The notes beneath the pieces are model-generated. The model had not been told where the DNA came from and did no database searches. It was given only the letters and a program-made list of their open reading frames with translations. A stretch of 17,459 nucleotides of DNA from an uncultured archaeon (GTDB lineage: Archaea; Iainarchaeota; Iainarchaeia; Iainarchaeales; CSSED10-239): NCBI GenBank assembly GCA_964468895.1, contig CAYXWT010000005.1, positions 17,115 to 34,573 of the forward strand, in the 5' to 3' direction. Positions 2,541-17,239 of the stretch are shown in pieces (positions within the stretch are counted from its first letter, which is position 1; the number at the start of each line of letters is the position of its first letter). The translations under genes and the position numbers were made by a program.

Positions 2541-3341
2541 AATTTGATGAATTAACTTTAAAGGGAATTGCAATAAATTTATAAATATTAAATAATATTT
2601 TTCAACTCCTTTTTTATGTTTGCAAATTGTGTAAATCTTACCTCTGATTTGAGAAAATAAACATTTTAATCTGAATATTTTTGGTTTAGAACCTTTATAA
2701 TAATTATAAACTGAATCTCTAATAAAGGCAATTTTATATTTTTTTAAAACTCTATAAGTAAAATCTGCATCTTGAGATCTAATTATTTTCTTATTAGTAT
2801 CCAAATAGCCAATTTTATCAAAAATACTTTTATTATACATTAATGTTGCTGTAATAAATGGTGTTGAAGAAACATTAAGAAATTGATTAGCAACAAAGTG
2901 TTTATTTTTATTTAATAATATATTATTATTTACAAGTCTAACAAATTTTAAAGTATCATTGTTATTTAAATAAACTGTAGAACCACAAACAATTTTATAA
3001 CCTTTATTATTTAATAAAAATTTAATTCTTTTTTGAATACTAGTTTTTGGAAAACTATCATCAGCATCCAAAAAACAAATAAAATCACCTTTTGCTTTCC
3101 TAACACCAAAATTTGTTGCATAAGCACGGCCATGATTTTTATTTAAATAGAAATAATTTATTTTTTTAGATTTAATTAAATTTTCTAAAACCATTTTTGT
3201 ATTATCAATAGAACAATCATCAACAACAATAATTTCTATATTTTTATATGTTTGAACTAAACAACTTTTTATTGCTCTTAAAATAGTTGTATCCATATTA
3301 AAGGTAGAAATTATTATACTAACTAATTCAGTCATATTCAT
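2529..3341 (-). CDS. Family 2 glycosyltransferase
   Basis: VSIIISTFNMDTTILRAIKSCLVQTYKNIEIIVVDDCSIDNT and the FLDADD (DxD) motif are typical of GT2. The ORF track starts at GTG 3377; I prefer ATG 3341 (MNMTELVSIII). Its 3' end overlaps the uvrC stop by 12 nt in convergent orientation. Confidence 0.85.
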   Translation of the reverse strand: MNMTELVSIIISTFNMDTTILRAIKSCLVQTYKNIEIIVVDDCSIDNTKMVLENLIKSKKINYFYLNKNHGRAYATNFGVRKAKGDFICFLDADDSFPKTSIQKRIKFLLNNKGYKIVCGSTVYLNNNDTLKFVRLVNNNILLNKNKHFVANQFLNVSSTPFITATLMYNKSIFDKIGYLDTNKKIIRSQDADFTYRVLKKYKIAFIRDSVYNYYKGSKPKIFRLKCLFSQIRGKIYTICKHKKGVEKYYLIFINLLQFPLKLIHQILFF

Positions 3342-3396
3342 TCCAAAACTAAAATATATATATTTAAGATTAAACACCTTTCTATTAATAAGTTAA

Positions 3397-3597
3397 TTAT
3401 AATTCAAAGTCTAAATTATTTCTAAGATCACTTAATGTTATTGCTGATGTAAAATTTCTTTTTTTAGCTTCATCCATTGCTTTCCAAATAGAAATTTTAT
3501 TTTCTTTAGCAACTTCACCTATAGACTTTTTACCTTCAGACCATTCTTTTAATGATAAATCTAAATTTTTATTAACTAAAGACTTTAATTTAAGCAT
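3397..3597 (-). CDS. Small UPF0175-like HTH protein (antitoxin-like), with no adjacent toxin
   Basis: ...EGKKSIGEVAKENKISIWKAMDEAKKRNFTSAITLSDLRNNLD resembles the UPF0175 pattern (G-x-hS-hG-x-AA...G-hS...F...L...gi). The ORF track starts at 3660, but that N-terminal extension is low-complexity. TGTGAT at 3608-3613 sits upstream of ATA 3603 and ATG 3597. Confidence 0.5.
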   Translation of the reverse strand: MLKLKSLVNKNLDLSLKEWSEGKKSIGEVAKENKISIWKAMDEAKKRNFTSAITLSDLRNNLDFEL

Positions 3598-3695
3598 AAA
3601 TATTTTAATCACATTATATTTATAAACAATGTTATTAGGAAATATATTTACTATGGCCAATTACCCTTAAGAAAACAATATAATTATTACCAATA

Positions 3696-3711
3696 CTAGA
3701 TATATATCTAG
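3696..3711. promoter_or_regulatory. Perfect 16-bp palindrome CTAGATATATATCTAG in the divergent uvrB / UPF0175 intergenic region, next to a TATA-like ATATAAATA
   Basis: Read directly: CTAGATAT/ATATCTAG. It lies 42 nt upstream of the uvrB ATG. The TATA-like element follows immediately at 3712-3720. Confidence 0.3.
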
Positions 3712-3752
3712 ATATAAATATACTATAATAGATTTTAATTAAAAGAAGAAAT

Positions 3753-5684
3753 ATGAATAAATTTAAATTAGTTTCAAAATATACTCCTAAAGGAGATCAA
3801 CCAAAAGCTATTGAACAATTATCACTTGGTTTGAAAAAAAAACAAAGATTTCAAACTCTTTTAGGTGCTACTGGTACTGGTAAAACATTTACTATAGCTG
3901 GAGTTATAGAAAAATACAACAGACCAACTATAGTTTTAGCTCATAATAAAACTTTAGCTGCTCAACTATATCAAGAATTTAAAGAATTATTCCCTGATAA
4001 TAGAGTAGAATATTTTATATCATATTATGATTTTTATAGACCTGAATCATATCTTCCTATTAAAGATATATATATAGAAAAAGAAGCAACTATTAATAAA
4101 AAAATAGAACAATTAAGATTAAGTACTACTGCTTCACTTATGAGTAGAAATGATACTATAGTAGTAGCTTCAGTATCATGTATATTTGGTTTAGGTAATC
4201 CTGATAATTTTAAAAATTTAGGTTTTAATATAGAAATTAATCAAGAAACTAATAGAAATCAAGTTATTAGACAATTAGTAGATATACAATATAAAAGAAA
4301 TGATATTGAACTTGAACCTGGTAGATTTAGAGTTAAAGGAGATACTATTGATATTATACCTGGTTATTATGAAAATATAATTAGAATTGAATTTTTTGGA
4401 GATAAAATAGAACAAATACTAGAATTAGAAAAAACAAGTAATAAAAAAATAAACAAATTAGAAAATTTTAAGGTATTTCCAGCTAAACACTTTGTTGTAA
4501 CTCCTGAACAAATAATAGATGCTAAAGAAAATATTTTAAAAGAATTAGAACAAAGACTTCCAGAATTAGATGCTATTGAAGCACATAGACTAGAAAAAAA
4601 AACAAGATATGATATGGAAATGATAAGTGAAGCTGGATATTGTTCAGGTATAGAAAACTATTCAAGACATTTTGATAAAAGAAAACCAGGACAAAGACCA
4701 TTTTGTTTATTAGATTATTTTCCTGAAGATTATTTATTAGTAATAGATGAATCACATCAAACAATTCCACAAGTTAAAGCAATGTACAAAGGAGATTATT
4801 CTAGAAAAAAAAATCTAATAGATTATGGTTTTAGATTACCTAGTGCATTTGATAATAGACCACTTACATTTGAAGAATTTCAAAAATTTATGAAACAAAC
4901 AATATTTGTTTCAGCTACTCCAAGTGAATTTGAAATTAATAGATCAAAAACTATTGCTGAACAAATAATAAGACCAACAGGTTTAGTAGATCCACAAGTA
5001 TATATTAAACCAATTAAAGGACAAATAAAAAATTTAATAGAAAATATTAATAAAAATATAAAAAAAGGATATCGTTCATTAGTAACAACTTTAACAAAAA
5101 AGTTAGCTGAAGAAGTAAGTGAATATCTAAGTGAAAAAGGTATAAAAACAAGATATCTTCATTCAGAAATAAATACACTAGAACGACAAGAAATAATTAG
5201 AGAACTAAGAGCAGGTAAATTTGATTGTTTAGTTGGAATTAACTTATTAAGAGAAGGACTTGATATTCCTGAAGTAGCTTTTATTGGAATACTTGATGCA
5301 GATAAAGAAGGTTTCTTAAGAGATAAGCGTTCATTAGTTCAGATAATAGGAAGAGCAGCTAGAAACAGCCACTCTTATGTTCATTTATATGCAGACAAAA
5401 TTACAGATTCAATTAAAAATGCAATGAAAGATACTAAAAGAAGAAGAGAAATACAAACAAAATATAACAAAGTACACAATATTACTCCAAAAACAATAGT
5501 AAAAGCAATAAAAGAAAAAATAATAGAAGTTAAAGACATAAAGCATATTCCAAAAGGAAATATTCCAAATATAATTACACAATTAGAAAAAGAAATGAAA
5601 CAAGCAAGTGATAATTTAGAATTTGAAAATGCAATAATAATTCGAGATAAAATAAATCAACTAAAAAACAAAATTAAAAAATAA
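3753..5684 (+). CDS. uvrB: Excinuclease ABC subunit B (UvrB)
   Basis: Walker A GATGTGKTF, DESH box (VIDESHQT), helicase motifs (LVGINLLREGLDIPEV, QIIGRAARN) and a C-terminal UVR domain (FENAIIIRDKINQLK). Confidence 0.97.
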   Translation: MNKFKLVSKYTPKGDQPKAIEQLSLGLKKKQRFQTLLGATGTGKTFTIAGVIEKYNRPTIVLAHNKTLAAQLYQEFKELFPDNRVEYFISYYDFYRPESYLPIKDIYIEKEATINKKIEQLRLSTTASLMSRNDTIVVASVSCIFGLGNPDNFKNLGFNIEINQETNRNQVIRQLVDIQYKRNDIELEPGRFRVKGDTIDIIPGYYENIIRIEFFGDKIEQILELEKTSNKKINKLENFKVFPAKHFVVTPEQIIDAKENILKELEQRLPELDAIEAHRLEKKTRYDMEMISEAGYCSGIENYSRHFDKRKPGQRPFCLLDYFPEDYLLVIDESHQTIPQVKAMYKGDYSRKKNLIDYGFRLPSAFDNRPLTFEEFQKFMKQTIFVSATPSEFEINRSKTIAEQIIRPTGLVDPQVYIKPIKGQIKNLIENINKNIKKGYRSLVTTLTKKLAEEVSEYLSEKGIKTRYLHSEINTLERQEIIRELRAGKFDCLVGINLLREGLDIPEVAFIGILDADKEGFLRDKRSLVQIIGRAARNSHSYVHLYADKITDSIKNAMKDTKRRREIQTKYNKVHNITPKTIVKAIKEKIIEVKDIKHIPKGNIPNIITQLEKEMKQASDNLEFENAIIIRDKINQLKNKIKK

Positions 5685-5719
5685 TTGCTTTTTTTGAGAA
5701 TTAGTAAATATAACCAAAT

Positions 5720-6032
5720 CTATTTTTTCTTAAAACCAAATAATTTATTATATTTCTTATGATCTCCATATTCCAATATAAAGCACATAATTTGAATTTC
5801 ATCTATTTGGATATTATATATTAATCTCCAATAATTTGAAAGATTAAGTATCCATAAATTAGTAATACCTTCTTTTTTATATTTTAATGGAATTAGAGAT
5901 TTTTTAACAGCTCTACCTTCTTGAAGATTTTCTTTTAATAATTCCATCTTCTTTTTCTTTAGAAATATTATTTCTTAATTTATTAAAGTCTTCTTTAGCT
6001 TCACCCTCAAATATAACTCTAATATTTTTCAT
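5720..6032 (-). pseudogene. RelE/ParE-family toxin disrupted by a single frameshift
   Basis: ATG 6032 overlaps the TGA of the upstream gene (ATGA). It reads MKNIRVIFEGEAKEDFNKLRNNISKEKE and then runs to TAG at 5913-5915. A second frame, open from 5974, continues ...MELLKENLQEGRAVKKSLIPLKYKKEGITNLWILNLSNYWRLIYNI...ILEYGDHKKY (RelE-like YRLIY...H-x-x-x-Y). The two frames join within the A-rich run at 5948-5960. Confidence 0.6.
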
Positions 6033-6292
6033 AACTCTAATCCTTTATTAATTCTTTTATATAACTTACCTTTTTCTTGATAAGTCCAAATTATTCCTTT
6101 TGTTCCATCATAAATAATTCCCTTACTATCTAAATAATCAATAATAACATTAAGAGTTTGTTTCATAATTTTATTATTTAGTTTTTTTAAAATTTTATAT
6201 CTAGATAAAGGTAATTCTGAATTTTTAATTACATTTTCTACTTCTAAAACTGTTTTTAAATTAGGATAATGTAAAACACATTCTATTTTCAT
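6029..6292 (-). CDS. Small winged-helix-like protein, putative antitoxin/regulator of the RelE-like gene
   Basis: GGTGAT (6297-6302), 4 nt, then ATG 6292 (MKIECVLHY...). The stop TGA overlaps the downstream ATG by 4 nt. Antitoxin-first order and size (87 aa) fit a type II TA pair; the fold assignment is inference. Confidence 0.55.
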   Translation of the reverse strand: MKIECVLHYPNLKTVLEVENVIKNSELPLSRYKILKKLNNKIMKQTLNVIIDYLDSKGIIYDGTKGIIWTYQEKGKLYKRINKGLEL

Positions 6293-6410
6293 AAATATCA
6301 CCACTCTTTAGTGTGTAGGGTATATATTTATTACCTGTTAAATTTATATTTATTTCTATTTAACAAAGGTTATGTATAACCCCCAAAAATAGAAATATTT
6401 ATAAAAAATG

Positions 6411-6626
6411 ATTATTTATTTTAACTATAAATTTAATTTAACCTAATAATATAATTAGACACAAATAACATATCTAAATTTCTGAACAGTAGTTAGCCGT
6501 TGCGAACTAAAAAAGAAAATAGATAGTATAAAAAAATAATTATTAAAACATAAATTAATTACAATTTATTATTTGATTTTATATCAAAATACATAAGAAC
6601 AGATCCTTTTTTTCTTTCCTTCAATA
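6411..6626. repeat. Direct repeat copy A (~215 bp): last ~70 nt of the GNAT CDS plus ~150 nt downstream
   Basis: Aligns almost base for base with 7368-7586, for example ttaactataaatttaatttaacctaataatataattagacacaaataa and taaattaattacaatttattatttgattt. By eye there is roughly one difference per 8-10 nt. Confidence 0.85.
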
Positions 6627-7110
6627 TTTTAAAATTAAGTTTCTTATAAAAATGAATCACATTTTTTTTAGGATCTTTATTTTTTTTTGCATCTAATATT
6701 AAAAATCTACACCCACAATAATTTTTAGAAATTGAATTTGCAAAATTATATGCTAACATAATCATTATACTACCTAATCCTCTTCTTAAAAAATTATCAT
6801 CTACAGCTAACCTACCAATTTTAACTGCAGGTAAAGTTTTATATAAAACATTTTTATCAAAAAAAGAATTCTTCAGATCCCCTTCTAATCTAAGAGAATC
6901 ATTTAATAATGTAATATATCCTGCCAATTGTTCTTTATAAAAAAATAGGTAAGACATAGATATCTTTTCCAGTTGATTATTTAATGCATCTTCTACAAGA
7001 AAGTTTTTTAATTCAGATTCATAAGTACAAAAATTAGATATTAAACCATTATGCTTTTTGGACATTGGTTCATATGTTATATGTTTTAAAGATATTTTTT
7101 CTTTATTCAT
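6559..7110 (-). CDS. GNAT N-acetyltransferase, TacT/AtaT/KacT-like toxin candidate
   Basis: Acetyl-CoA motif A (VKIGRLAVDDNFLRRGLGSIMI). N-terminal FCTYESELKNFLVEDALNNQLEKISMSYLF resembles the F-x-C-G...L-x-x-FL...A...S-x-TYV signature of GNAT toxins. The ATG overlaps the TGA of a small upstream ORF (ATGA). Confidence 0.8.
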   Translation of the reverse strand: MNKEKISLKHITYEPMSKKHNGLISNFCTYESELKNFLVEDALNNQLEKISMSYLFFYKEQLAGYITLLNDSLRLEGDLKNSFFDKNVLYKTLPAVKIGRLAVDDNFLRRGLGSIMIMLAYNFANSISKNYCGCRFLILDAKKNKDPKKNVIHFYKKLNFKILKERKKGSVLMYFDIKSNNKL

Positions 7111-7265
7111 AAATGACTTTTAAAAAAGTCTTTATTTTTCTCTGCTTCTTTAATAAAAGCAATTCTTCCCTTAGAAGGATTTTTAATCTCTTTAATCCAT
7201 TCTTTCAAAAATCTTCTAGCATCTTCGCCTCTTAATGTAGGTGTAGCTCTAATTGGTTTAGCCAT
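7107..7265 (-). CDS. Unannotated 52-aa protein, putative cognate antitoxin of the GNAT
   Basis: Translated by hand: MAKPIRATPTLRGEDARRFLKEWIKEIKNPSKGRIAFIKEAEKNKDFFKSHL. GTGTGAT lies 4 nt before the ATG. There is a 4-nt ATGA overlap with the GNAT start. It is absent from the ORF track (the shortest listed ORF is 60 aa). Confidence 0.6.
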   Translation of the reverse strand: MAKPIRATPTLRGEDARRFLKEWIKEIKNPSKGRIAFIKEAEKNKDFFKSHL

Positions 7266-7367
7266 ATTTATCACACTTTTAATATTAACTTATATTATAT
7301 ATATAGACTGATTAAATTTATATAATCTTGTAATTTACGAATTTAAATTATCTTCTAATTCTAACCA

Positions 7368-7586
7368 ATTATTTATTTACTTTAACTATAAATTTAATTT
7401 AACCTAATAATATAATTAGACACAAATAATATATATCTATTTCTAAACAGTACTTGGCCGTAGCAAACTAAAAAATAAAATAGACAGTATAAAAAATAAC
7501 TGCTAAAATATAAATTAATTACAATTTATTATTTGATTTAATATCAAAACACATAAGAACAAATATTTTTTTTCTTTTCTACAATT
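7368..7586. repeat. Direct repeat copy B; contains a relic of a GNAT 3' end
   Basis: See copy A. On the minus strand, 7519-7575 still reads KRKKIFVLMCFDIKSNNKL-stop (intact gene: ERKKGSVLMYFDIKSNNKL-stop), preceded by an in-frame TAG. Confidence 0.85.
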
Positions 7587-7668
7587 TCAATTTTGAGTAA
7601 TCAAATAACAAACATCTCTAATCAATAATACATCTTCAGTAAATCTTTGAACTTTAAAACCAGACATT

Positions 7669-7696
7669 ACCTTTTTGTCGGACTCGACAAAATGGT
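7669..7696. repeat. Hairpin element X1: 12-bp stem with one mismatch and a 4-nt loop
   Basis: ACCTTTTTGTCG-GACT-CGACAAAATGGT. It lies 87 nt downstream of the HIT stop. The outer arms are shared with X2. Confidence 0.5.
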
Positions 7697-7782
7697 CTTC
7701 AATATTAAAACCTAAGTTAGTACAAAAAAACTTATACAAACATATAATTTTAGAACTGATGAAAAAGCAACATAAAAAGTAA

Positions 7783-8178
7783 TTAATCTACAAAATTCTT
7801 AACATCTAATTTCAAATTTTCTTTATACTTCTTAGCTAAAGAAACATCTTTTAGCTTTTTTGGCTTTTCCTCTAAAACATTCATTCCTTGGACATCATAT
7901 CTTGGTATAAGATGCCAATGAACATGTTGTGTTTCAGCCATATAAAGTAAATATACTTTTTTAATTTTCAAAGTTTTAAGCATAGCATTTCTAACTGCAT
8001 CTAGAACATCCCTAAAATAATTATAATCTTTTCTTTTAAGAAGATGTAAATCTGCAATTTTATCCTTCTACACAATTACTACATGTCCTTTTGTTATTGG
8101 TAAATTTGCAAGAGTAGCATAAAGTTTAGAATCTTCATAAAAAATTGCCCCTTTCAATGGTTTCGGAAAATCAGACAT
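7783..8178 (-). pseudogene. HIT-family hydrolase interrupted by one in-frame TAG (8068-8070)
   Basis: The two track ORFs 8068-8250 and 7783-7983 are in the same frame. Hand translation across the gap gives ...PITKGHVVIV-TAG-KDKIADLHLLKRKDYNYFRDVLDAVRNAMLKTL...AETQHVHWHLIPRY (HxHxHxx histidine triad). TGTGAT, 4 nt, then ATG 8178 (MSDFPKPLKG). Confidence 0.8.
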
Positions 8179-8365
8179 ATATATCACATTTAATAATATC
8201 ATCGAATAGTTTTGTAAATATTTTAAGCTATTTTTTAAATAAAACAACAACCAAAAATGAATAATAAATGAATATACTTTCTAAATAAAAACCTTTCTGT
8301 TTCTTATTATAGAAATATACTTTACAATATAAGGTATTTCCTTTTTAGAACCTGAAACCAATCTA

Positions 8366-8393
8366 ACCATTTTCTTGACATCAAGAAAATGGT
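8366..8393. repeat. Hairpin element X2: perfect 13-bp stem with a 2-nt loop
   Basis: ACCATTTTCTTGA-CA-TCAAGAAAATGGT. It lies between the DUF3160-like gene's 3' end and the HIT gene start. Confidence 0.55.
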
Positions 8394-8549
8394 CCAAAAC
8401 AGAAAATTTGAATTTTTAAAAGAGAATTTTACTTTAGAATTCCTTATTTAATAAAATTAATCCTAAATATTATAGATTAGTAAATAATTAACTACCACAG
8501 AAGTACAAAATAATCTAAATTAAACTTATTGAAAAAAAATTAATTTATA

Positions 8550-11162
8550 TTAATCATATAAGTAATTTGGTCTACCTACAAGTTCAGATAAATTTTCACT
8601 ACTACTTCTCCACTTTTCATCAGTTAATCTATCATCCATATCCCAAGGAAATTCATAATAACTAAACATTGGACCAACAGCTAATCCAATTGAACCATCT
8701 TTAGATTTATGAGCTACAATTATCCAATCAATTCTACCTGTACCAACTTCTAAAACCTTTGAAGTGTTTCCTTCTGTATGAACATCAGCTATAATTTGAG
8801 TATTAAATGGATCATCTTCTGTAGACAATCTTGTTGAACTTATAGATCCTATTCCACTTTTTCCAACTTTAACTGTTAGAGCAGAAGCTAATTTTTCAAG
8901 TATATCTGTTAAACTTACAGAAATACTTTCTATATAATCATAATCTTCTTCACTTAGTTCTGTATTTTTTAATTCTTTTTTAGAAATTTCTTCTAATCTA
9001 CTAACTAAGTTTATACTATCATCAATAGGTTCTTTAAGTTTATTACTTAAAAGTTCTTTTTCTTCTAATCCATTTTTAAGTAATTCTAATGTTTTTTTTA
9101 ATCTAAAATAAGCTTCTGGATTTGGTTCTACATATCCATAATATTTAGAACTTAATGGACCCATAGCACCACAGGAAGTTCTAGAAGTATATGATTGTTT
9201 TACATAAAGAATTGTATCATGTCTTAGTTGAGCCCAAGAGCCAAGTGCAGTAATTAAATCTTTTTTCTCCCAAACTTTTGATCTCATCCAATTAGGATAG
9301 CCTATAGGTTTATCTTTTACAATTGGTTGAAGTACCCATAACCAAGAATTATATAAATTATCTGTCCAATCACTTACTGTATAACTATCAACTAAATTCT
9401 TAGAAGAATTTAATTGATTAGAATAATTACAAAAAGAATTATAATTTAAATCTGAAATTATTTCATCTGCACTATTAGAACCAAGTGAAGACATAATATC
9501 TAAACCAGTAGGCATAAATCTACAACTATTATATACTTTTTGTAATTTAGGATCATTATATTCTAAATTACAATTATAACCACAATAATAAACCATTGCT
9601 GATTCACAAACCTCATTCCAATACTTTTGTTTATTAGCATCCATACTTTCACAAGACTTATAAAAATCAACAGGTTGACTTAAAATAGAATTAATTTCAC
9701 CAAAATTTAATATATCATTATAATCACTATTATCTATATTAGGTCCTACATTTCTATATACCATATCTCCTAATATTTGTGAATCTATTGCATATCTTTG
9801 ACCAATTAGTCTCATACCTTTAGTTGTTTCTTCTAAAGAACCACTTAAATCAAATTCAAAATTATTAAGTATTTTAGGTCCTTTCATTTCACTAAGTTCT
9901 TCTTGAATATTATTAAACAATTCTTCATCACTTATAATATCTTCTTTACTTATATTAGAATCAGAAGAATCTTCAATAATATTATTTAAAGCCATATCAT
10001 AATCATAAAAACTTAAATCATCACTAACACCACTAAAAAAAGAAGTAACACTATATACTTTATTCCATTCATCATCAATATCAGCTGATTTTACAGCTTC
10101 AGAAAGTAAAAGTGCTTGTTTAGTCCAGTTTTCTCCATTAGTTTTAAAAGTAATTCTTCCAAGCCACATCATACTTTTAAAATAATTTTTTAATTCTTCA
10201 GTACTTGTATAATGACCTCTAGGAATATATTGTGAATAATCTTCACAATAACATTTTTTAGAACACACATCATTATACAAATCTACAAATTCTACTTCTT
10301 CTTCATTATAAATAACTTTTACTTTTATTTCAGAAGAACAAGAATTATCGTTTTTTAAATATAATACATTACTACAAACATTAGGACAATCTTTACTAAA
10401 CAATTCATTTTTATAAAAACCTTTATGAGCTTTTATTCTTCCAATTTCTTTATCTACATCCTCTTTAACCATACTTTTCACATTATAAGAAGGATCTAAT
10501 AATTTTAAAGCAACACTTAAATAAGCTAAATTTCTTTTAGATAATTCTTTATTTAAAGGATCTTCTAAAGATTCATATTGTTTATAACTTTCATTTATAC
10601 TTTTAGAAAGAAATTTGTCTAATAAATCAGACAATTCATTTATTTCTAGATTTTTAAGAATTTCATTAAATTCAATATGAAATAAATTCAAAACAGAATC
10701 TGTAGTTATAATAATAGGAACACCAGATCTATCTTCATTATACCTAGTAATCCAAGATTGGTTAGGACCTCTACTATTACTCATATGCTCATAAGCATCT
10801 TCGAATTTATTATATTTTTGTCCAAGAGTATCTCCTGGTATAATAACAACACCATTATCAAGAAGAGTTTGTGTTTCGTTTTCATTTAAATTTAAATTAA
10901 ACTTACCTTTAATATCTCTAATATAGTTTATTGGCATTTCTTCTAAAGGAAGTTCATATTCTGGATTATTATAATTTTCAGAAATATAATTTATATTTTC
11001 ATCATCACTAACATTAATCAGTCTTACATTTTCAAAAGTTTTATTTGAAAATTCATAATTTCCAGAACTTAAAGACAAATTAGTTCCAAAAATATTAAAT
11101 ACAAAAATAGCAGCTATAATAATAACAATAATAAATATAATTCCAAAAAAATTCTTATTTAT
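8550..11162 (-). CDS. Large Cys-rich secreted or membrane-anchored protein, DUF3160-like
   Basis: Uninterrupted 842-codon ORF in AT-rich DNA. NGVVIIPGD..., VPIIITTDSVLNLFHIEF and IPRGHYTSTEELKNYFKSMMWLGR match my recollection of DUF3160. The same frame stays open upstream of the track's TTG 11078 and encodes NKNFFGIIFIIVIIIAAIFVFNIFGTN (a signal anchor). There is no in-frame ATG. ATA 11160-11162 is preceded by TGAGAT plus 4 nt. Confidence 0.8.
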   Translation of the reverse strand: MNKNFFGIIFIIVIIIAAIFVFNIFGTNLSLSSGNYEFSNKTFENVRLINVSDDENINYISENYNNPEYELPLEEMPINYIRDIKGKFNLNLNENETQTLLDNGVVIIPGDTLGQKYNKFEDAYEHMSNSRGPNQSWITRYNEDRSGVPIIITTDSVLNLFHIEFNEILKNLEINELSDLLDKFLSKSINESYKQYESLEDPLNKELSKRNLAYLSVALKLLDPSYNVKSMVKEDVDKEIGRIKAHKGFYKNELFSKDCPNVCSNVLYLKNDNSCSSEIKVKVIYNEEEVEFVDLYNDVCSKKCYCEDYSQYIPRGHYTSTEELKNYFKSMMWLGRITFKTNGENWTKQALLLSEAVKSADIDDEWNKVYSVTSFFSGVSDDLSFYDYDMALNNIIEDSSDSNISKEDIISDEELFNNIQEELSEMKGPKILNNFEFDLSGSLEETTKGMRLIGQRYAIDSQILGDMVYRNVGPNIDNSDYNDILNFGEINSILSQPVDFYKSCESMDANKQKYWNEVCESAMVYYCGYNCNLEYNDPKLQKVYNSCRFMPTGLDIMSSLGSNSADEIISDLNYNSFCNYSNQLNSSKNLVDSYTVSDWTDNLYNSWLWVLQPIVKDKPIGYPNWMRSKVWEKKDLITALGSWAQLRHDTILYVKQSYTSRTSCGAMGPLSSKYYGYVEPNPEAYFRLKKTLELLKNGLEEKELLSNKLKEPIDDSINLVSRLEEISKKELKNTELSEEDYDYIESISVSLTDILEKLASALTVKVGKSGIGSISSTRLSTEDDPFNTQIIADVHTEGNTSKVLEVGTGRIDWIIVAHKSKDGSIGLAVGPMFSYYEFPWDMDDRLTDEKWRSSSENLSELVGRPNYLYD

Positions 11163-11281
11163 AAATATCTCATCTTTCCTATTATTACTTATTAATTACA
11201 CAAGTAATTAATTGTAATCTATTAGATATTTAATAGGTAAATATTTAAAAACACTTTTTTTTGATAAGGTTATAAAAACAA

Positions 11282-11972
11282 TCAGATATTTACAATTTTA
11301 TCAATGTTTTTATTTAAATATTTAATAAAATCACCTTTAGTCTTAGATTTTAATTTATACCAATCCAAATAAAGATTTCTAATATTATCTTCTAGTTTAT
11401 TCAAAATTTCAAATTTTTTAGAACCATATTTAGTATAATAATAATTATCCCACAATTTAGAAGTAAAACCAAATTTAAACTTAAATATATTAGTTATAGT
11501 ACTTACAAAACATTCTTCAAAATAAATCTAATTTAAACAATCTTTATTATCTTTAATTGATTTAATTAACTCTTGATAAATTTCATCTTTTTGATTAATA
11601 CAATGTGCTAATTCATGAAACATAGTAGAAAAAATCCTTTTTTTTCTAAGTATTATTTTCCTAATCATAAATTTCACTTCTTTTAGCATAAGGAGAAATA
11701 ACTAAAATAAAACCATCTATAAAAGCATGACCTGTATAACCACTCATACCAGTTGGTCCAATAGCACTAAAACATTTAAAATTAAGATTATCTTCTAAAT
11801 TATAAATCTGACTTAAAAAGTTTATTTTTTTCAAAATCTCATTTTTAAAGTCTTTAAATAAACTATTTACTTATACTATTAAATCTAAATTTATATGATT
11901 TATATTAATAGCATTCAAAAATTAATTAATAAAAACTAATTCTTTTCTTAAGTAATTATTAGATAATCTTAA
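11282..11972 (-). pseudogene. Decayed HExxH zinc-peptidase-like gene (possibly DUF2268-like); the 5' limit is approximate
   Basis: Minus-strand fragments read as follows:
- ...LRLSNNYLRKELVFIN-TAA-FLNAININHINLDLIV-TAA-VNSLFKDFKNEILKKINFLSQIYNLEDNLNFKCFSAIGPTGMSGYTGHAFIDGFILVISPYAKRSEIYD-TAG
- frameshift
- MIRKIILRKKRIFSTMFHELAHCINQKDEIYQELIKSIKDNKDCLN-TAG-IYFEECFVSTITNIFKFKFGFTSKLWDNYYYTKYGSKKFEILNKLEDNIRNLYLDWYKLKSKTKGDFIKYLNKNIDKIVNI-TGA
Such long open stretches are unexpected for non-coding AT-rich DNA. Confidence 0.5.
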
Positions 11973-12150
11973 ATTAAATAATTATTATAAAACCTAATAT
12001 CTTACAATTAAAACAACAAAAAGACTTTGATTATAGTACTATAATTTACTTTTTCTAAAATTAAATAAAATATATTTAACAATATTATAAAAATTAGGTT
12101 AATCTTTTGTTTTCTACAATATATTTAGACATATAAAAAATATATCTTAC

Positions 12151-13656
12151 TTAAAGATCCCAAATACATTTGCCATTAACTTTTCCAAAGTTATCCATAT
12201 TTTGAGTATAATTTTTAATAATAAGATAAGTTTTTTCAAAAGATGTATTAGCATTCTTCTTTTTATCTACATTAGTAATAATATTTAATATCTCTTTTCT
12301 ATCAATGTTTTTAAAATAATTAATAAAATCATTTTGAAGAATATTACAAAGACCATAAAAATAAGATTTTGCAAGTATTATATCTTTTTTATTTTTAGAA
12401 TCTAGATAATCTTTAATATAACTCCTCATACTCTTAACAGAATCTTTAAGTATATATTCAAGATTTTTAAAATCTTTATTTTTAATATATTTAACAATCT
12501 TATTTTTAATATTAATAAATTCTTTAGATTCATAAGAAGTAATATTACTAGTACCTTTTTTTTTAGTAAAATTAGTTTTTTTATTTAATAAAGAATTAAA
12601 ATATACTATAGAATTATTAGCATCTACAACAACTTCATCATTATCATTAGTATATTTTAATAATTCACTAATATTAATACCACCTATACAAGGAAGACCT
12701 AATTCTCTAGAAATTATAGCAGGATGAGATGTTACTGAATCAATTTCACATATAACAGCTTTTGCTTTTTTATAAACCTCTATATATTCTGGAAATAAAA
12801 CATAAGTTACGAGAATATTATTTTTTTTAAATAATTTACTAGCTTCTTTAAAATTAACAGCATCTGAAATAAATTGGATATTTCCTTTTACAAAACCATT
12901 TGATAAAGTAACACCTTTTATTTTAGAATTATATATCTTCTTATTTATAGAGTTTTGTAATTTATTTTCTTTAACTTTATTTAATTTACTTAAAGTAGTA
13001 ATATTTCTACTTTGAAGTATCCAAATATTATTTTCTTTATCAATAGCAAATTCAATATCTTGAGGGTACTTAAAACTCAATTCTATATCTTGCCCAAATA
13101 AATATAACTTTTTAAAGATTTTATTTAGATTTTTGGTTTTATTAATTTTTAGAGAATTTTCTTTACCAGAAACTAAGTTATGTAGATGTCCAAAAACATA
13201 TTCTATTAAAAAATTAGATTTACCTATAGGATCTTTGGTAAAATAAACTCCAGAAATACTTGTAATTATTTGTTTTTGTACAATTACTCCTAAATCATCA
13301 TTTTTTGAACTTTTAATAACATCTAATATTGCTAAAAACAATTCTTCTTCTGAATTTACATTAATTATACTTTTATATTTTCCAGCTAGAGAACAATCAT
13401 TAGAGTCTTCTAATAAACCACTACTTCTAACAACTATAGGAAAAGTAGGTTTTGAAAAAATACAATCATAAAGATAATTTAAAATTTCAGTTTTATATTT
13501 TTTTAAAAGACCTTTTTTTTTAATATTATTAACTAAATATGTATCTAAAACAAATCCATTAGGCACATTATAAGAAAATCTTTTTAATTTCATTAAATTA
13601 TATGCTTTATTACCAATTGTTTTAGAATCAACAAGAGAGTATAAATTATAAATCAT
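12151..13656 (-). CDS. PEP-utilising-type phosphotransferase: PPDK_N-like ATP-grasp domain, phosphohistidine swivel domain, and an uncharacterised ~140-aa C-terminal region
   Basis: N-terminus SKTIGNKAYNLMKL...VVRSSGLLEDS...SLAGKYKS matches the PEP/pyruvate-binding (nucleotide-binding) domain. SVTSHPAIISRELGLPCIGG is the PEP-utilisers mobile-domain His motif. No TIM-barrel PEP-binding domain is evident. The start overlaps the rSAM gene's end by 11 nt. Confidence 0.85.
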   Translation of the reverse strand: MIYNLYSLVDSKTIGNKAYNLMKLKRFSYNVPNGFVLDTYLVNNIKKKGLLKKYKTEILNYLYDCIFSKPTFPIVVRSSGLLEDSNDCSLAGKYKSIINVNSEEELFLAILDVIKSSKNDDLGVIVQKQIITSISGVYFTKDPIGKSNFLIEYVFGHLHNLVSGKENSLKINKTKNLNKIFKKLYLFGQDIELSFKYPQDIEFAIDKENNIWILQSRNITTLSKLNKVKENKLQNSINKKIYNSKIKGVTLSNGFVKGNIQFISDAVNFKEASKLFKKNNILVTYVLFPEYIEVYKKAKAVICEIDSVTSHPAIISRELGLPCIGGINISELLKYTNDNDEVVVDANNSIVYFNSLLNKKTNFTKKKGTSNITSYESKEFINIKNKIVKYIKNKDFKNLEYILKDSVKSMRSYIKDYLDSKNKKDIILAKSYFYGLCNILQNDFINYFKNIDRKEILNIITNVDKKKNANTSFEKTYLIIKNYTQNMDNFGKVNGKCIWDL

Positions 13657-14821
13657 TATATTTCACATCATAAAATTTTAAAATTTGCGGATAATTTTTA
13701 AGAACATATTTCTTATATTTACAATTTATTTTTGAATTATATAATCCTTTATATATACAACCAACACAGTAATTATAAAATTCACAATCTCCACAAATCT
13801 CTTTATTAGGTTCAGGAATTTTGAATAAAAATGAATTTTCTAAAAAATTATCAGTATCATAAATATTTCCAATTTTAAAATTAAGTGGAAATAAAGCACA
13901 AGGTCTTATATCACCATTAGGTTCTATAGAACTATGTTTTAATAATAAACCACAATTTACTAAATTTATACGCATATCTTTTTTATTAAAATCTTCTAAA
14001 TTATTATTAACAAATTTCTCAATATATGTTAGTTCAGTTATTTTATTTTTACCTCTACCTATTGGTGAAACATATGAAAAATCAACTAGTTTAACTCCTA
14101 ATTCGAATAATTTTTTTGTAACAATATCCTTTTGATCTAAATTATAATCAATATCTGTACATATAATTCTTAGAGGTAGATATTTTTTTAATTCTAATAT
14201 AGTTTTACGTAAATAAAAATCATTATCATCAATTTTGTTTATATCTCTAAACCAACGATTAAAACTCATACTAATATTTAATTTATTTAAATTAATAATA
14301 TTTATAGATTTTAATAGTTTACTTAAAATAGATGTGTTTGTTCCATTAGTTATCAATTCCACAGATTCAAAATTGTTTAACAAAAAACACATAAAATCAA
14401 CAAAATTTCTATGTAATGTAGGTTCTCCTCCAGTAACACAAATTTCTCTTAAACCTTTATCTTTAAAAAACAACAATCTTTTTTTAATTTTTTCAACATC
14501 ACAAAAATTACTATCTAAATTAAATTTAGCATCACGATAACAATAATCACAATTTAAATTACAACTATCTGTTAATTCAATTTGAAAATATAAAGGATAC
14601 ATTTCATTAACAGAACCTATAATTTCAAAATCATGGTTATAAATATTATTATTATTAAAAAAAGAAATTACAAAATCTGAGATTTTATTTTTTTTATAAT
14701 TTATAAATTCTACATTAGCAGATTTATTAAAAACATAAATATGAGAATCTCTAAAACCTAAATTATTATTAAAATAAATTAAAAAATAAGAAAAAAAAGG
14801 TGTTCTATAATAATATTGCAT
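13646..14821 (-). CDS. Radical SAM enzyme with a C-terminal SPASM-like domain (peptide maturase candidate)
   Basis: CNLNCDYC (CxxxCxxC), GGEPTLH, and a C-terminal Cys cluster (CALFPLNFKIGNI ... CGDCEFYNYCVGC). An ~85-aa extension lies N-terminal to the SAM cluster. ATG 14821 is preceded by GTTGAT plus 4 nt; the track starts at TTG 14833. Confidence 0.9.
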   Translation of the reverse strand: MQYYYRTPFFSYFLIYFNNNLGFRDSHIYVFNKSANVEFINYKKNKISDFVISFFNNNNIYNHDFEIIGSVNEMYPLYFQIELTDSCNLNCDYCYRDAKFNLDSNFCDVEKIKKRLLFFKDKGLREICVTGGEPTLHRNFVDFMCFLLNNFESVELITNGTNTSILSKLLKSINIINLNKLNISMSFNRWFRDINKIDDNDFYLRKTILELKKYLPLRIICTDIDYNLDQKDIVTKKLFELGVKLVDFSYVSPIGRGKNKITELTYIEKFVNNNLEDFNKKDMRINLVNCGLLLKHSSIEPNGDIRPCALFPLNFKIGNIYDTDNFLENSFLFKIPEPNKEICGDCEFYNYCVGCIYKGLYNSKINCKYKKYVLKNYPQILKFYDVKYNDL

Positions 14822-14826
14822 GATAA

Positions 14827-14919
14827 TCAACAAGGTTTATTTCCACAGGTACCTCTATTAAATGCAACACTATGTACAACACCAATAAATTTTGGTATAT
14901 TTGAATCATCTGAATCCAA
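14827..14919 (-). CDS. Unannotated 30-aa peptide, candidate RiPP precursor
   Basis: Hand translation: (M/L)DSDDSNIPKFIGVVHSVAFNRGTCGNKPC-TGA. GAGGTGAT, 4 nt, then TTG 14919, the same spacing as other genes here. The stop lies 5 nt before the rSAM ATG. The frame is open back to GTG 14955, so the peptide could be up to 42 aa. Confidence 0.55.
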   Translation of the reverse strand: MDSDDSNIPKFIGVVHSVAFNRGTCGNKPC

Positions 14920-15038
14920 AATAATCACCTCATAAATTATAGAACCAAACAACACTTAAATACTAGCATTAATCTAAAAATTATTTAAATAACAAATTAC
15001 AAGTAATATCTTTAAACACTACTTAGACAATATTAAAA

Positions 15039-15094: not shown

Positions 15095-15544
15095 TTAAAA
15101 AAAATCTTTAAATTCAGATATAATTTTATCCATAATTTCTTTTTGACGAGGAAATTTCAAATACTTTACAAAATTGTCCTTATTTACAAAAACAAATCCA
15201 CTAACTTCTTCTTCTTGCAATTTGATATCATCAATATTACTTTTAATTTTAGCTATAAAAATACTTCTTATTTGACCTTCATATCTTATACCTACTTGTT
15301 TATATTTATGTTCAATAGCATATTTTGGCCAATCAAATTTTTCTATAATAGTACTTTTTTCTAATATTTCAATATCTACATCAAGTTCTTCTTTCATTTC
15401 TCTTTTAAGTGCTAATTCATCAGATTCATTATCTTCAACACCTCCAGCAGGTATTTTATAATAATCTGGTTCACCAGTAGATTGTACTAAAACAAATTCT
15501 TTTTTATCATTAAATAAAAAAGCACTAACACCTTTTCTATACAT
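15095..15544 (-). CDS. NUDIX hydrolase
   Basis: Nudix box GGGVEDNESDELALKREMKEELDV (Gx5Ex7REUxEExGU). GAGGTGAT, 4 nt, then ATG 15544. Confidence 0.9.
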   Translation of the reverse strand: MYRKGVSAFLFNDKKEFVLVQSTGEPDYYKIPAGGVEDNESDELALKREMKEELDVDIEILEKSTIIEKFDWPKYAIEHKYKQVGIRYEGQIRSIFIAKIKSNIDDIKLQEEEVSGFVFVNKDNFVKYLKFPRQKEIMDKIISEFKDFF

Positions 15545-15715: not shown

Positions 15716-17239
15716 CTAATTACCTTCAATATAATTTTTACCTTTTAAAGTAATTTTATACCTTTGATTAGGATCTCTTGGGCTATTTGGATTATTCATT
15801 TCAATAAAACCAAAATCTAATAACTTTTTTAAAGATGTTCTAAAATTTCTAGTTCTAGATTTATATCCTAAATAATTTAAAATATATTTTATAGCAACCA
15901 AATTTTTATTATTAATAAATTTAATTATTTTCAAATCAATATCTATAAAACTTACTTGGACCCCTACTTGGACCCCTGCTTGGACCCCTAAAGATATATC
16001 TTTAATTTTCTTTTTAAACTCAGGATGAATCTCAAATTTAGTAATAAATTGACATCTCTCATCATCAGTAATAAAAACAGGTTTTGGAGAACCATTTATT
16101 CTTAAAGAATCTCTTATTTTTTTAAAACCAGTATTTCTTCCTTCAGTAAAATGTAATTCTTTTAGAAAATCTCCTATTCTTCTATTTCTATATCTTCTAG
16201 AAATAACAACATCATCATTAATATTATTTTTATTTAATGGAGGCATAGGTCCAGGATAACTAGTAATATATGTTTTGTCTAGTTCAACTCTTACTTCAAT
16301 AGGAGCATCAATTTCATAATCTTTATGGTAAACAGCATTAACTAATGCTTCTTCAATAGCAACAAATGGATAGGAATAAAATCTTAAACTTTCAGCTTTA
16401 TTTGGAACTTTTCTTACTTTTTCTATAATCACATTATTTTTTATAAACTGAAGTGCACCTCTTATTTGAGAAATAACATCTCCAGAAAATATTTTTTCTT
16501 CAAAATTATCTCCAATTTTATCATGAAAAACAGTAACTTCAATCCAAGGAGTTTTAATATATTTTTTAGGTTCTCTAGAAAATAAAAGTAAACCAATATT
16601 TTTTGGTTTTATATATTCATTAGGTCCATCTATAATATTTAAACTTTTATAAATTTCTATAGGTTTTAGTTTATTTATATCTAAATTTGAATTTGTTTCT
16701 TTTAAAAAAGAACTTATTAGATTTAGATCTAAATCAGAAAGTTCAGCTTTAAGATTAATTCTATCATCAAAAGGAATATTTTGAGACATAGAAATTAATT
16801 CTCTTTCTTCATCAGGTTTTGCTATAACTGTAGAAGCTCCTCTTCTAATATAATATATATATCTAGGTTTTTTACCTAAAGATTCAGGACATTTATAAGG
16901 TCTACTTGGACCACCATAACAATATAAAACTATTAAAAATTTACTTTTATATTCTACAACATCCATTATTGGAAAATAAGGATAAATAATTTTATTAGAT
17001 AATTCAATTAATTTTTTTAAAATAAAATCTATTTTTGACTTTTCAACACCCACTACTTCTTTAGTATCATTATCTATACCTATTATTAGATATCCTCCAC
17101 CCCAATTATTAAAATCATTAGCAAAAGCACACATAGTGTGCATAACTTCTATTGGATTAAAACCTTTTTTTAATTCTAATCTTTCATGTTCTATTATATT
17201 TTCTTTTAATAAAACATCAATCTTAATCGGAATAGGCAT
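15716..17239 (-). CDS. AlbA_2 (Schlafen-like) + HATPase_c_4 + C-terminal wHTH protein (often mis-annotated as 'RecG-like' or putative transcriptional regulator)
   Basis: N-terminus EHERLELKKGFNP...AFANDFNNWGGGYLIIGI (AlbA_2). EEALVNAVYHKDYEIDAPIEVRVELDKTYITSYPGPMPP (HATPase_c_4). C-terminus ...SPRDPNQRYKITLKGKNY (wHTH). Confidence 0.85.
   Translation of the reverse strand: MPIPIKIDVLLKENIIEHERLELKKGFNPIEVMHTMCAFANDFNNWGGGYLIIGIDNDTKEVVGVEKSKIDFILKKLIELSNKIIYPYFPIMDVVEYKSKFLIVLYCYGGPSRPYKCPESLGKKPRYIYYIRRGASTVIAKPDEERELISMSQNIPFDDRINLKAELSDLDLNLISSFLKETNSNLDINKLKPIEIYKSLNIIDGPNEYIKPKNIGLLLFSREPKKYIKTPWIEVTVFHDKIGDNFEEKIFSGDVISQIRGALQFIKNNVIIEKVRKVPNKAESLRFYSYPFVAIEEALVNAVYHKDYEIDAPIEVRVELDKTYITSYPGPMPPLNKNNINDDVVISRRYRNRRIGDFLKELHFTEGRNTGFKKIRDSLRINGSPKPVFITDDERCQFITKFEIHPEFKKKIKDISLGVQAGVQVGVQVSFIDIDLKIIKFINNKNLVAIKYILNYLGYKSRTRNFRTSLKKLLDFGFIEMNNPNSPRDPNQRYKITLKGKNYIEGN
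15954..15989. repeat. Three tandem 12-nt GC-rich repeats inside the AlbA_2 gene, encoding (GVQx)3
   Basis: acttggacccct / acttggacccct / gcttggacccct. On the minus strand this encodes GVQAGVQVGVQV, between the HATPase_c_4 and wHTH regions. Confidence 0.9.

Follow-up and report, generated by a model that had tools for sequence, protein, structure and literature searches.

The DNA analysed here is a stretch of 17,459 nucleotides, referred to below as the window, from an uncultured archaeon of the Iainarchaeota (assembly GCA_964468895.1, contig CAYXWT010000005.1, positions 17,115 to 34,573), and the subject of this work is a group of three tightly packed genes on its minus strand. These genes encode a 30-residue peptide with two cysteines, a radical S-adenosylmethionine (SAM) enzyme with a SPASM-type C-terminus, and a truncated enzyme of the phosphoenolpyruvate (PEP)-utiliser type that is referred to here as the dikinase. 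A rare trio of this kind is conserved in ultrasmall uncultured archaea, while the peptide and the radical SAM enzyme are also found without the dikinase on at least one bacterial contig, and the whole looks like an undescribed pathway for the production of a modified peptide. We are somewhat inclined to the view that the three genes form a cassette for a ribosomally produced peptide with post-translational modifications (RiPP) of ultrasmall uncultured DPANN-like archaea, in which the radical SAM enzyme crosslinks the core of the peptide and the dikinase phosphorylates it. The arrangement of the genes had been described in a first-pass annotation made from the letters of the DNA, and the three minus-strand genes, the 5-nucleotide gap and the 11-nucleotide overlap were confirmed from the sequence (Table 1).

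Conservation of the three-gene cassette

Relatives of the cassette were mapped by tblastn and by listing of open reading frames (ORFs) in independent metagenomic contexts, which together with the window gave 15 distinct loci; every sequence is metagenome-derived. The order and orientation of a small ORF, a radical SAM/SPASM gene and a gene for a protein of about 500 residues with PPDK_N and histidine swivel domains is kept in 12 of the 15 (the window, L006, L007/8, L009/99, L010, L011, L012/104/105, L093/102/103, L094, L096, L100 and L101), and the pairing of the two enzymes that the first-pass annotation had picked out in the window is therefore one that recurs. The remaining three loci (L095/108, L097/106 and L098) do not carry the dikinase. 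The enzymes of the trio are between 33% and 76% identical to those of the window, with the gene order kept down to about 33–37% identity. At the junction between the radical SAM and dikinase genes there is either an overlap of 4–20 nucleotides or a gap of 1 nucleotide, and wherever the dikinase family occurs (12 of 12 loci) it lies directly downstream of the radical SAM gene. The radical SAM enzyme of L012/L104 is only 25% identical to that of the window, yet this locus contains the same type of peptide and the dikinase. A contig scan with the full radical SAM alignment also drew in the generic motifs TGGEPT and CNLxCxYCY, and with them at least 80 unrelated radical SAM loci (L013–L092).

The source labels of the family members are “archaeon”, “Candidatus ainarchaeum sp.” and “Candidatus Marsarchaeota archaeon”, with one short contig labelled as Patescibacteria, and the nearest relatives of the window are labelled as archaeon or Ca. 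Ainarchaeum. The contigs of L009 and L010 carry the archaeal markers aS21, EF-1beta, RadA, diphthamide synthase and DUF357. In L106 a gene for a four-region sigma-70 factor (RpoD-like, 5656–6891, minus strand) is located approximately 850 nucleotides from the precursor gene, which indicates that this pair of precursor and radical SAM genes is on a bacterial contig. With L106 being bacterial and both L009 and L010 clearly from archaea, a transfer between domains of life is implied. No relative was found among viral contigs.

The precursor peptide

The peptide encoded in the window has the sequence (M)DSDDSNIPKFIGVVHSVAFNRGTCGNKPC. All 13 loci for which upstream sequence is available bear out the suggestion that a small cysteine-containing ORF is a conserved part of the cassette: each has an upstream ORF of 30–80 residues with a core of the consensus R-x-[S/T/Y]-(N)-C-[G/D]-x-x-P-C. 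When the precursors are aligned the R, C, P and C of this core are invariant and the G is nearly so, and the positions between the two core cysteines are variable except for the G and the P. The variants seen are C-D-K-R-P-C and an extra Asn before the first cysteine (Cys1), while after the second cysteine (Cys2) the peptides either end or continue as KGHYQ, KGKYQ, KGNYQ, GS or GHNIFSFGDNEEV. Ahead of the core the proximal part of the leader follows the consensus E-P-x-h-h-D-D-F-E-G-h-h-h-x-R, where h is a hydrophobic residue. Searching the window and 18 related loci in all six frames with the pattern R..N?C[GD]..PC gave exactly one match per locus, always directly upstream of the radical SAM gene. 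A search of 5.8 billion proteins with a profile of the precursor gave no more than 20 clusters, every one from this family and 19 of them with E values from 1e-19 to 8e-8.

All 22 sequences have a hydroxyl residue directly before Cys1, or in the variants directly before Asn-Cys; this is Ser or Thr in 21 and Tyr in one. Six codons are used for it (ACC, ACT, TCA, TCT, AGT and TAT), which include both of the Ser codon families. The first-pass annotation had considered the Ser and Thr residues of HSVAFNRGT as possible sites of modification; going by the alignment, these would narrow to the single conserved hydroxyl residue before Cys1.

The closest homologue of the precursor is encoded by L006, as a 30-residue ORF that starts with ATG, ends at the same last residue and has TAA as its stop codon. 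Between the window and L006 the codons of residues 10–30 differ only by synonymous changes, while the nine N-terminal residues have five replacements, and this pattern of substitution indicates that the precursor peptide is under purifying selection. Because L006 has a TAA at the corresponding place, the TGA of the precursor gene in the window is a real stop codon. The possibility that TGA is a sense codon, which would give a longer peptide, was rejected on the same grounds and because UvrB, UvrC and both cassette enzymes of the window read intact in translation table 11.

The radical SAM/SPASM enzyme

The CxxxCxxC and GGEPT motifs and the SPASM-like cysteines on which the first-pass annotation had based its description of the second gene can all be read in the sequence, and the enzyme scores above the cut-offs for both Pfam Radical_SAM (PF04055, 54.9 bits against 29.5) and the SPASM model TIGR04085 (33.4 bits against 27). 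In an alignment of 21 sequences the GGEPT motif is invariant, and the spacing of the SPASM cysteines (C290-x12-G303-x4-C308, C343-x2-C346-x5-C352-x2-C355 and C367) is invariant or nearly so.

The enzyme is related most closely to AlbA, SkfB and SuiB, all of them maturases of peptides, rather than to anaerobic sulfatase-maturating enzymes (anSME) or cofactor maturases. The top NCBIfam match is AlbA (NF012164), which covers residues 62–372 at 85.5 bits against a cut-off of 850; the PapB ranthipeptide maturase (NF047865) scores 53.5 bits against 340 and SkfB (TIGR04403) 40.9 bits against 300. Sequence identity to enzymes of the AlbA, SkfB and PapB types is no higher than 30% and, as judged from these scores, the enzyme is outside every curated maturase family. 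The top profile match in the Protein Data Bank (PDB), to SkfB, starts at profile position 19 and so spans the N-terminal domain. The AlphaFold2 (AF2) model of the enzyme has an overall predicted local distance difference test score (pLDDT) of 87.6, and Foldseek ranked SkfB first (template modelling (TM) score 0.62), SuiB second (TM 0.60) and anSME after them, with the SkfB and SuiB matches being full-length. On account of the AlbA and SkfB matches, the model of the N-terminal domain and the Foldseek ranking, the enzyme probably groups with the SPASM peptide crosslinkers that bear a RiPP recognition element (RRE). Conversion of Cys to formylglycine in the manner of anSME was set aside, since the C-x-P-x-R motif is absent and the Foldseek matches to SkfB and SuiB are ahead of that to anSME. 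The only matches to the enzyme in PADLOC are generic viperin-core ones, to residues 85–181.

Among the 5.8 billion proteins the radical SAM family comprises approximately 24–25 clusters at 90% identity, which are at least 37% identical, after which there is a sharp drop to AlbA-like enzymes of 30% identity or less; one of the latter is annotated as the subtilosin maturase AlbA. A profile search of 1.84 billion representatives at 50% identity gave a similar picture, with about six full-length family clusters at 247 bits or more and, below them, a plateau of AlbA-like proteins of 440–480 residues at 130–190 bits. ORFs that look conserved are also present on the antisense strand of the radical SAM gene, and these were interpreted as a by-product of the conservation of the coding strand.

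The truncated dikinase

The third gene was described in the first-pass annotation as encoding an ATP-grasp and phosphohistidine-swivel enzyme, and the Pfam matches agree with this, with 97.3 bits for PPDK_N (PF01326, cut-off 27) and 56.8 bits for PEP-utilizers (PF00391, cut-off 23.1). The AF2 model (pLDDT 86.7) has an ATP-grasp domain, a disordered linker of about 20 residues, the swivel domain and a five-helix bundle. The swivel motif is DS(I/V)TSH311PAII(A/S)RE, of which S307-x2-S310-H311 is invariant in 19 sequences. The helical bundle contains the invariant residues D464, Y477 and D488, and Pfam and PDB sequence searches gave no match to it and no recognisable peptide-binding signature; it is presumed to be the domain that binds the acceptor substrate.

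The closest folds are PPDK, RPH (rifampin phosphotransferase) and HpeI. PEP synthase (8a8e at 7e-56) is the strongest overall match in sequence to the family profile, which also matches rifampin phosphotransferase. The PEP/pyruvate TIM barrel (PF02896) of PEP synthase and PPDK, which every homologue outside the dikinase family has, is however absent from the 501 residues of the dikinase, and the scores are at least 5-fold under every PEP synthase and PPDK equivalog cut-off (for example 123.8 against 598 bits). An architecture similar to that of rifampicin phosphotransferase had been proposed in the first-pass annotation. The likeness holds for the ATP-grasp and swivel domains but does not extend further: RPH has approximately 860 residues, with a large rifampin-binding domain inserted between the ATP-grasp and the swivel where the dikinase has only its short linker, whereas the helical bundle after the swivel is new to the dikinase, and the score of the dikinase against the RPH model is 72.1 bits compared to a cut-off of 999. 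The family consists of approximately 20 clusters of 477–515 residues that are 37–100% identical, below which there is a drop to PEP synthases of 750–800 residues with PF02896. In its architecture the dikinase is a new and minimal form within the dikinase superfamily, and PADLOC gave no match for it. The characterised members of this superfamily use a phosphohistidine to phosphorylate alcohols and phenols at the hydroxyl, with release of AMP and Pi; RPH and HpeHI (a two-component aromatic dikinase), which share the ATP-grasp and histidine swivel machinery of the present enzyme, both phosphorylate the hydroxyl of a substrate other than pyruvate (PMC4844700, PMC12167813).

Table 1. Features of the cassette, in positions of the window
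Feature	Position	Strand	Details
Precursor gene	14827..14919	−	30 residues from TTG, including TGA stop 14827–14829
Alternative precursor start	14827..14955	−	GTG at 14955 giving a 42-residue ORF, from the mechanical ORF list
Shine–Dalgarno-like GAGGTGA	14925..14931	−	5 nucleotides upstream of TTG 14919; putative function
Conserved core RGTCGNKPC	14830..14856	−	
Radical SAM/SPASM maturase	13646..14821	−	391 residues; ATG at 14821, 5 nucleotides after the precursor stop
N-terminal domain, residues 1–~70	14612..14821	−	Three beta strands and two helices, RRE-like (AF2, pLDDT >90)
CNLNCDYC (CxxxCxxC)	14540..14563	−	C87, C91, C94; invariant in 21 sequences
SPASM region	13721..13954	−	Seven conserved Cys: 290, 308, 343, 346, 352, 355, 367
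Truncated PEP-utiliser-type dikinase	12151..13656	−	501 residues; overlaps the end of the radical SAM gene by 11 nucleotides
ATP-grasp (PPDK_N), residues 1–~220	12997..13656	−	Motifs RSS..ED..AG and QDIE invariant
Phosphohistidine swivel, residues 244–353	12598..12927	−	Catalytic-type His311 in DSVTSHPAIISRE, codon 12724–12726
C-terminal five-helix bundle, residues 378–490	12187..12525	−	Family-specific; from the AF2 model

A proposed pathway for peptide modification

From the linkage of the genes and the fold class of the enzymes we infer a series of chemical steps and a biological role. The 30-residue precursor would consist of a short leader and the core R-G-[S/T]-C-G-x-x-P-C, and the fold of the RRE-like N-terminal domain suggests that this part of the radical SAM enzyme would bind the leader. 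By analogy with SkfB and AlbA the enzyme, with SAM and two auxiliary Fe-S clusters, may then use the two invariant cysteines to form one or two crosslinks within the peptide, and in the same analogy the likeliest crosslink would be a thioether from the Cys sulfur to a carbon atom. The dikinase, which is probably translationally coupled to the radical SAM enzyme, would pass phosphate from the ATP-grasp domain to His311 of the swivel as in PEP synthase and rifampin phosphotransferase. In this process ATP would be converted to AMP and Pi, and the phosphoryl group of His311 would be transferred to an oxygen of the peptide, which may be held by the C-terminal helical domain of the dikinase during transfer. 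The likeliest acceptor would be the hydroxyl residue directly before Cys1. The phosphate may be the final decoration of the peptide or a masking group that protects the producer, and the second of these options fits the presence of histidine phosphatase genes near some of the loci.

In its most specific form, the proposal is of a new RiPP class, found in DPANN archaea and with relatives in bacteria of the candidate-phyla type, in which SkfB/AlbA-like crosslinking of C-G-x-x-P-C is followed by phosphorylation, of Ser, Thr or Tyr or of a backbone or carboxyl oxygen, by a miniaturised PEP synthase-type dikinase. This assignment is tentative and we give it slightly less than even weight.

The systems that provide the analogy for the first step, the sporulation killing factor enzyme SkfB and the subtilosin A enzyme AlbA, are the best matches to the radical SAM enzyme in both sequence and fold, and have the same arrangement of a small cysteine-containing precursor directly upstream of a radical SAM enzyme that has auxiliary clusters in its C-terminal part and an N-terminal domain for peptide binding, a role that is putative in the present enzyme. 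The differences are that the present enzyme is shorter, with approximately 390 residues compared to 410–450, that its precursor is unrelated, that its partner is a dikinase, and that the cassette does not include an export, immunity or protease set of the AlbB-G type. Homologues of AlbA and sboA (subtilosin) have recently been reported in Thermococcales archaea (bioRxiv 10.64898/2026.07.27.741052). The streptide enzyme SuiB, CteB and PapB are of the same fold class, with an RRE-like N-terminal domain, a radical SAM barrel and SPASM, and PapB and CteB are weak sequence matches, but the present core contains neither the Lys-Trp pair nor the C-x3-D/E ranthipeptide motif that would go with these enzymes.

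Phosphorylated RiPPs are known from the lasso-peptide Ser kinases and from the kinase domains of class III–V lanthipeptide and thioamitide pathways, and the kinases concerned are HPr-kinase-like, protein-kinase-like or similar to aminoglycoside phosphotransferase (APH-like). The ATP-dependent O-phosphorylation of a ribosomal peptide that is proposed here is similar in concept, but by Pfam all three of these folds are absent from the cassette. The supposition of the first-pass annotation that no RiPP class with a PPDK_N/swivel partner has been described agrees with our searches: NCBIfam 20.0, Pfam and PADLOC contain no model for such a RiPP or for the precursor peptide, and none was found in the literature searched, which did not extend to most subscription journals. 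Peptides modified by radical SAM enzymes are already known, and it is the precursor family and the swivel-histidine dikinase as a tailoring partner that are new. If the proposal is true, this would be the first use of the PEP synthase-type dikinase fold in peptide tailoring; should the dikinase act on the peptide, it would bring a new enzyme fold to RiPP chemistry and provide a compact peptide phosphotransferase of 501 residues that could be of use in engineering. The hosts have minimal genomes, from which almost no specialised metabolites are known. That the cassette is under purifying selection and is shared across the archaeal and bacterial divide hints at a role in dealing with neighbours, and the product could mediate an interaction between an episymbiont and its host or a competitor. 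With three genes and a 30-residue substrate the system is small and can be tested directly by heterologous expression.

Several observations weigh against this proposal. The assignment of the peptide as the substrate of the dikinase follows from the linkage of the genes, and the acceptor could instead be a small molecule or a protein. Three loci (L095/L108, L097/L106 and L098) have the precursor and the radical SAM gene with no dikinase within 0.7–6 kb downstream, and because of these phosphotransfer would have to be dispensable, or encoded elsewhere, in their part of the family; all three fall in one subclade of the radical SAM tree, which also holds the kinase-bearing archaeal locus L009. 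The hydroxyl residue before Cys1 is kept in the kinase-less loci too, and its conservation alone is therefore no tie to the dikinase. For the radical SAM enzyme, the match to Pfam SPASM (PF13186) is just under the cut-off at 20.2 compared to 21.5 bits, and residues 1–75 gave no match to PqqD/RRE or any other Pfam hidden Markov model or to a PDB sequence. Since the AlbA, SkfB and PapB scores are far below their cut-offs, the type of crosslink is not confidently transferable from these enzymes. Finally, no leader peptidase or exporter is conserved near the cassette across the loci.

Alternative explanations

The kinase-less loci would be accounted for if the precursor and the radical SAM enzyme are a genuine pair but the dikinase, though co-transcribed, acts elsewhere, on a small molecule, on a protein (as an autophosphorylating regulator like VadK) or on the radical SAM enzyme itself. 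The lack of a recognisable peptide-binding signature in the C-terminal helical domain is consistent with this, as is VadK (Rv1127c), a truncated PPDK which resembles the present dikinase in that loss of the PEP/pyruvate domain can give a different, regulatory kinase with a new role (PMC13400623). Such a division of the cassette is nevertheless unlikely, as it has to be set against a dikinase family that is never seen without a radical SAM gene directly upstream, a start/stop overlap between the two genes that is conserved, and a peptide and dikinase that stay paired even where the radical SAM enzyme is down to 25% identity. In addition, the flanking genes differ for each lineage and there is therefore no shared metabolic partner.

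A second explanation concerns the product rather than the chemistry, and is compatible with the steps proposed above. The cassette could make an intracellular peptide-derived cofactor, comparable to mycofactocin or pyrroloquinoline quinone (PQQ), or a redox- or metal-binding module, instead of an exported bioactive compound. In the mycofactocin and PQQ pathways a radical SAM/SPASM enzyme acts on residues at the C-terminus of a short peptide. There is no conserved exporter or protease nearby, the motif to be modified is at or near the C-terminus, and CG..PC is reminiscent of a dithiol loop such as the CGPC of thioredoxin; the maintenance of a cassette in very small host genomes may also suggest a housekeeping benefit. 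Against this, the family is very rare and patchy and is spread over domains of life, which is typical of accessory cassettes that move horizontally, the cofactor enzymes PqqE and MftC do not match as well as SkfB, AlbA and SuiB, and in the loci compared no dependent oxidoreductase is linked to the cassette. We consider a cofactor-like product to be as improbable as a dikinase with a substrate other than the peptide.

It is more doubtful still that the phosphate is an intermediate of dehydration. In this scheme the dikinase would phosphorylate the Ser or Thr before Cys1, elimination would give dehydroalanine or dehydrobutyrine, and Cys2 would add to form a lanthionine-type ring or, after decarboxylation, an aminovinyl-cysteine-type ring, with the radical SAM enzyme performing a separate step. 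Phosphorylation followed by elimination is known from class III–V lanthipeptides and thioamitides, and the precursors could in principle support it, with Ser or Thr in 21 of the 22 sequences and a Cys six residues further on, which in several members is at the extreme C-terminus. The Tyr of the remaining member is not eliminable however, the cassette contains no lyase or cyclase domain, and many members have a tail such as KGHYQ after Cys2.

That the small ORF arose by chance in AT-rich DNA, where many spurious short ORFs are indeed found in a genome of approximately 21% GC, with the two enzymes as accidental neighbours, is effectively refuted by a core kept at the amino acid level with synonymous variation over 13 loci, a single motif match in each locus, precursor profile matches down to E = 1e-19 among 5.8 billion proteins, and a gene order that persists to approximately 33–37% enzyme identity.

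Genes surrounding the cassette

In the loci compared, no neighbour beyond the trio is shared across the lineages. The kinase-less loci share a conserved GNAT gene on the minus strand, which is convergent with the radical SAM gene and overlaps its 3′ end (1721–2275 in L095, 2104–2592 in L097 and 1789–2274 in L098); the product might be an alternative tailoring enzyme or an immunity enzyme. The GNAT gene of the window (6559–7110) was considered as a counterpart and rejected, as the two are not homologous. Genes for His_Phos_1 phosphatases lie near the cassette in L007 (two, at 8156–9347, after the cassette), L096 (one) and L106, where a NUDIX gene accompanies the phosphatase downstream of the kinase-less cassette (10554–11685). 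In the window a NUDIX hydrolase gene is likewise found immediately upstream of the precursor gene (15095–15544, minus strand). The association of NUDIX and His_Phos_1 genes with the cassettes could reflect a link to phosphate removal or be chance synteny. About 1.7 kb downstream of its cassette L011 has two swivel-only ORFs (PEP-utilizers, 8712–9566 and 9805–10113) in addition to the full dikinase. The region before the precursor in L104 (838–5035) encodes an ABC2 membrane protein, a MarR/TrmB regulator, a second radical SAM enzyme of 479 residues and a DUF4932 protein of 507 residues, and the divergent cassette type of L012/L104 is the only one with a possible exporter nearby.

Apart from the cassette, the genes of the window are for UvrC, a GT2 glycosyltransferase, UvrB, GNAT, a DUF3160 protein, the NUDIX hydrolase and a SLFN_AlbA_2/HATPase_c_4 protein. 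The first-pass annotation had noted that no transporter or intact protease is nearby, and Pfam likewise gave none in the window; tRNA genes and Rfam matches were also absent from it. The GC content is approximately 21% across the window, at which the scan for promoter-like sites is uninformative (51 found, 51.2 expected), and the scan for terminators in the window gave none. Two regions of the window, 11079–12150 (approximately 1.1 kb) and 7111–8549 (approximately 1.4 kb), have no ORF of more than 66 residues and no tRNA or Rfam match, and in other assemblies of the locus only ORFs of 31–57 residues are called there. An identical locus is present on five metagenome contigs.

The window is syntenic with L006 from 915 to 5684 (4425–7938 in L006), with identities of 84% for UvrC, 58% for GT2 and 88% for UvrB, while the cassette enzymes of the two loci are only 70–76% identical. 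In the window only, approximately 6.5 kb containing DUF3160, GNAT and small ORFs is located between the cassette and UvrB. The DUF3160 protein (842 residues, 8550–11078, minus strand, Pfam E = 9e-168) is encoded on the same strand as the cassette and downstream of it, and is probably unrelated to the cassette, because it is absent from all other loci of the family. On the other side of the cassette the window encodes a protein of 507 residues with SLFN_AlbA_2, HATPase_c_4 and Fic-like_C domains (15716–17239, minus strand), which matches pAgo-associated and Aga-type models of PADLOC. Past the right end of the window, in L001 (1–4500), this protein is followed by two PIN-domain ORFs and by endonuclease-like, Bro-N-like and TrmB-type helix-turn-helix ORFs, and together these genes next to the cassette are suggestive of a defence or mobile island.

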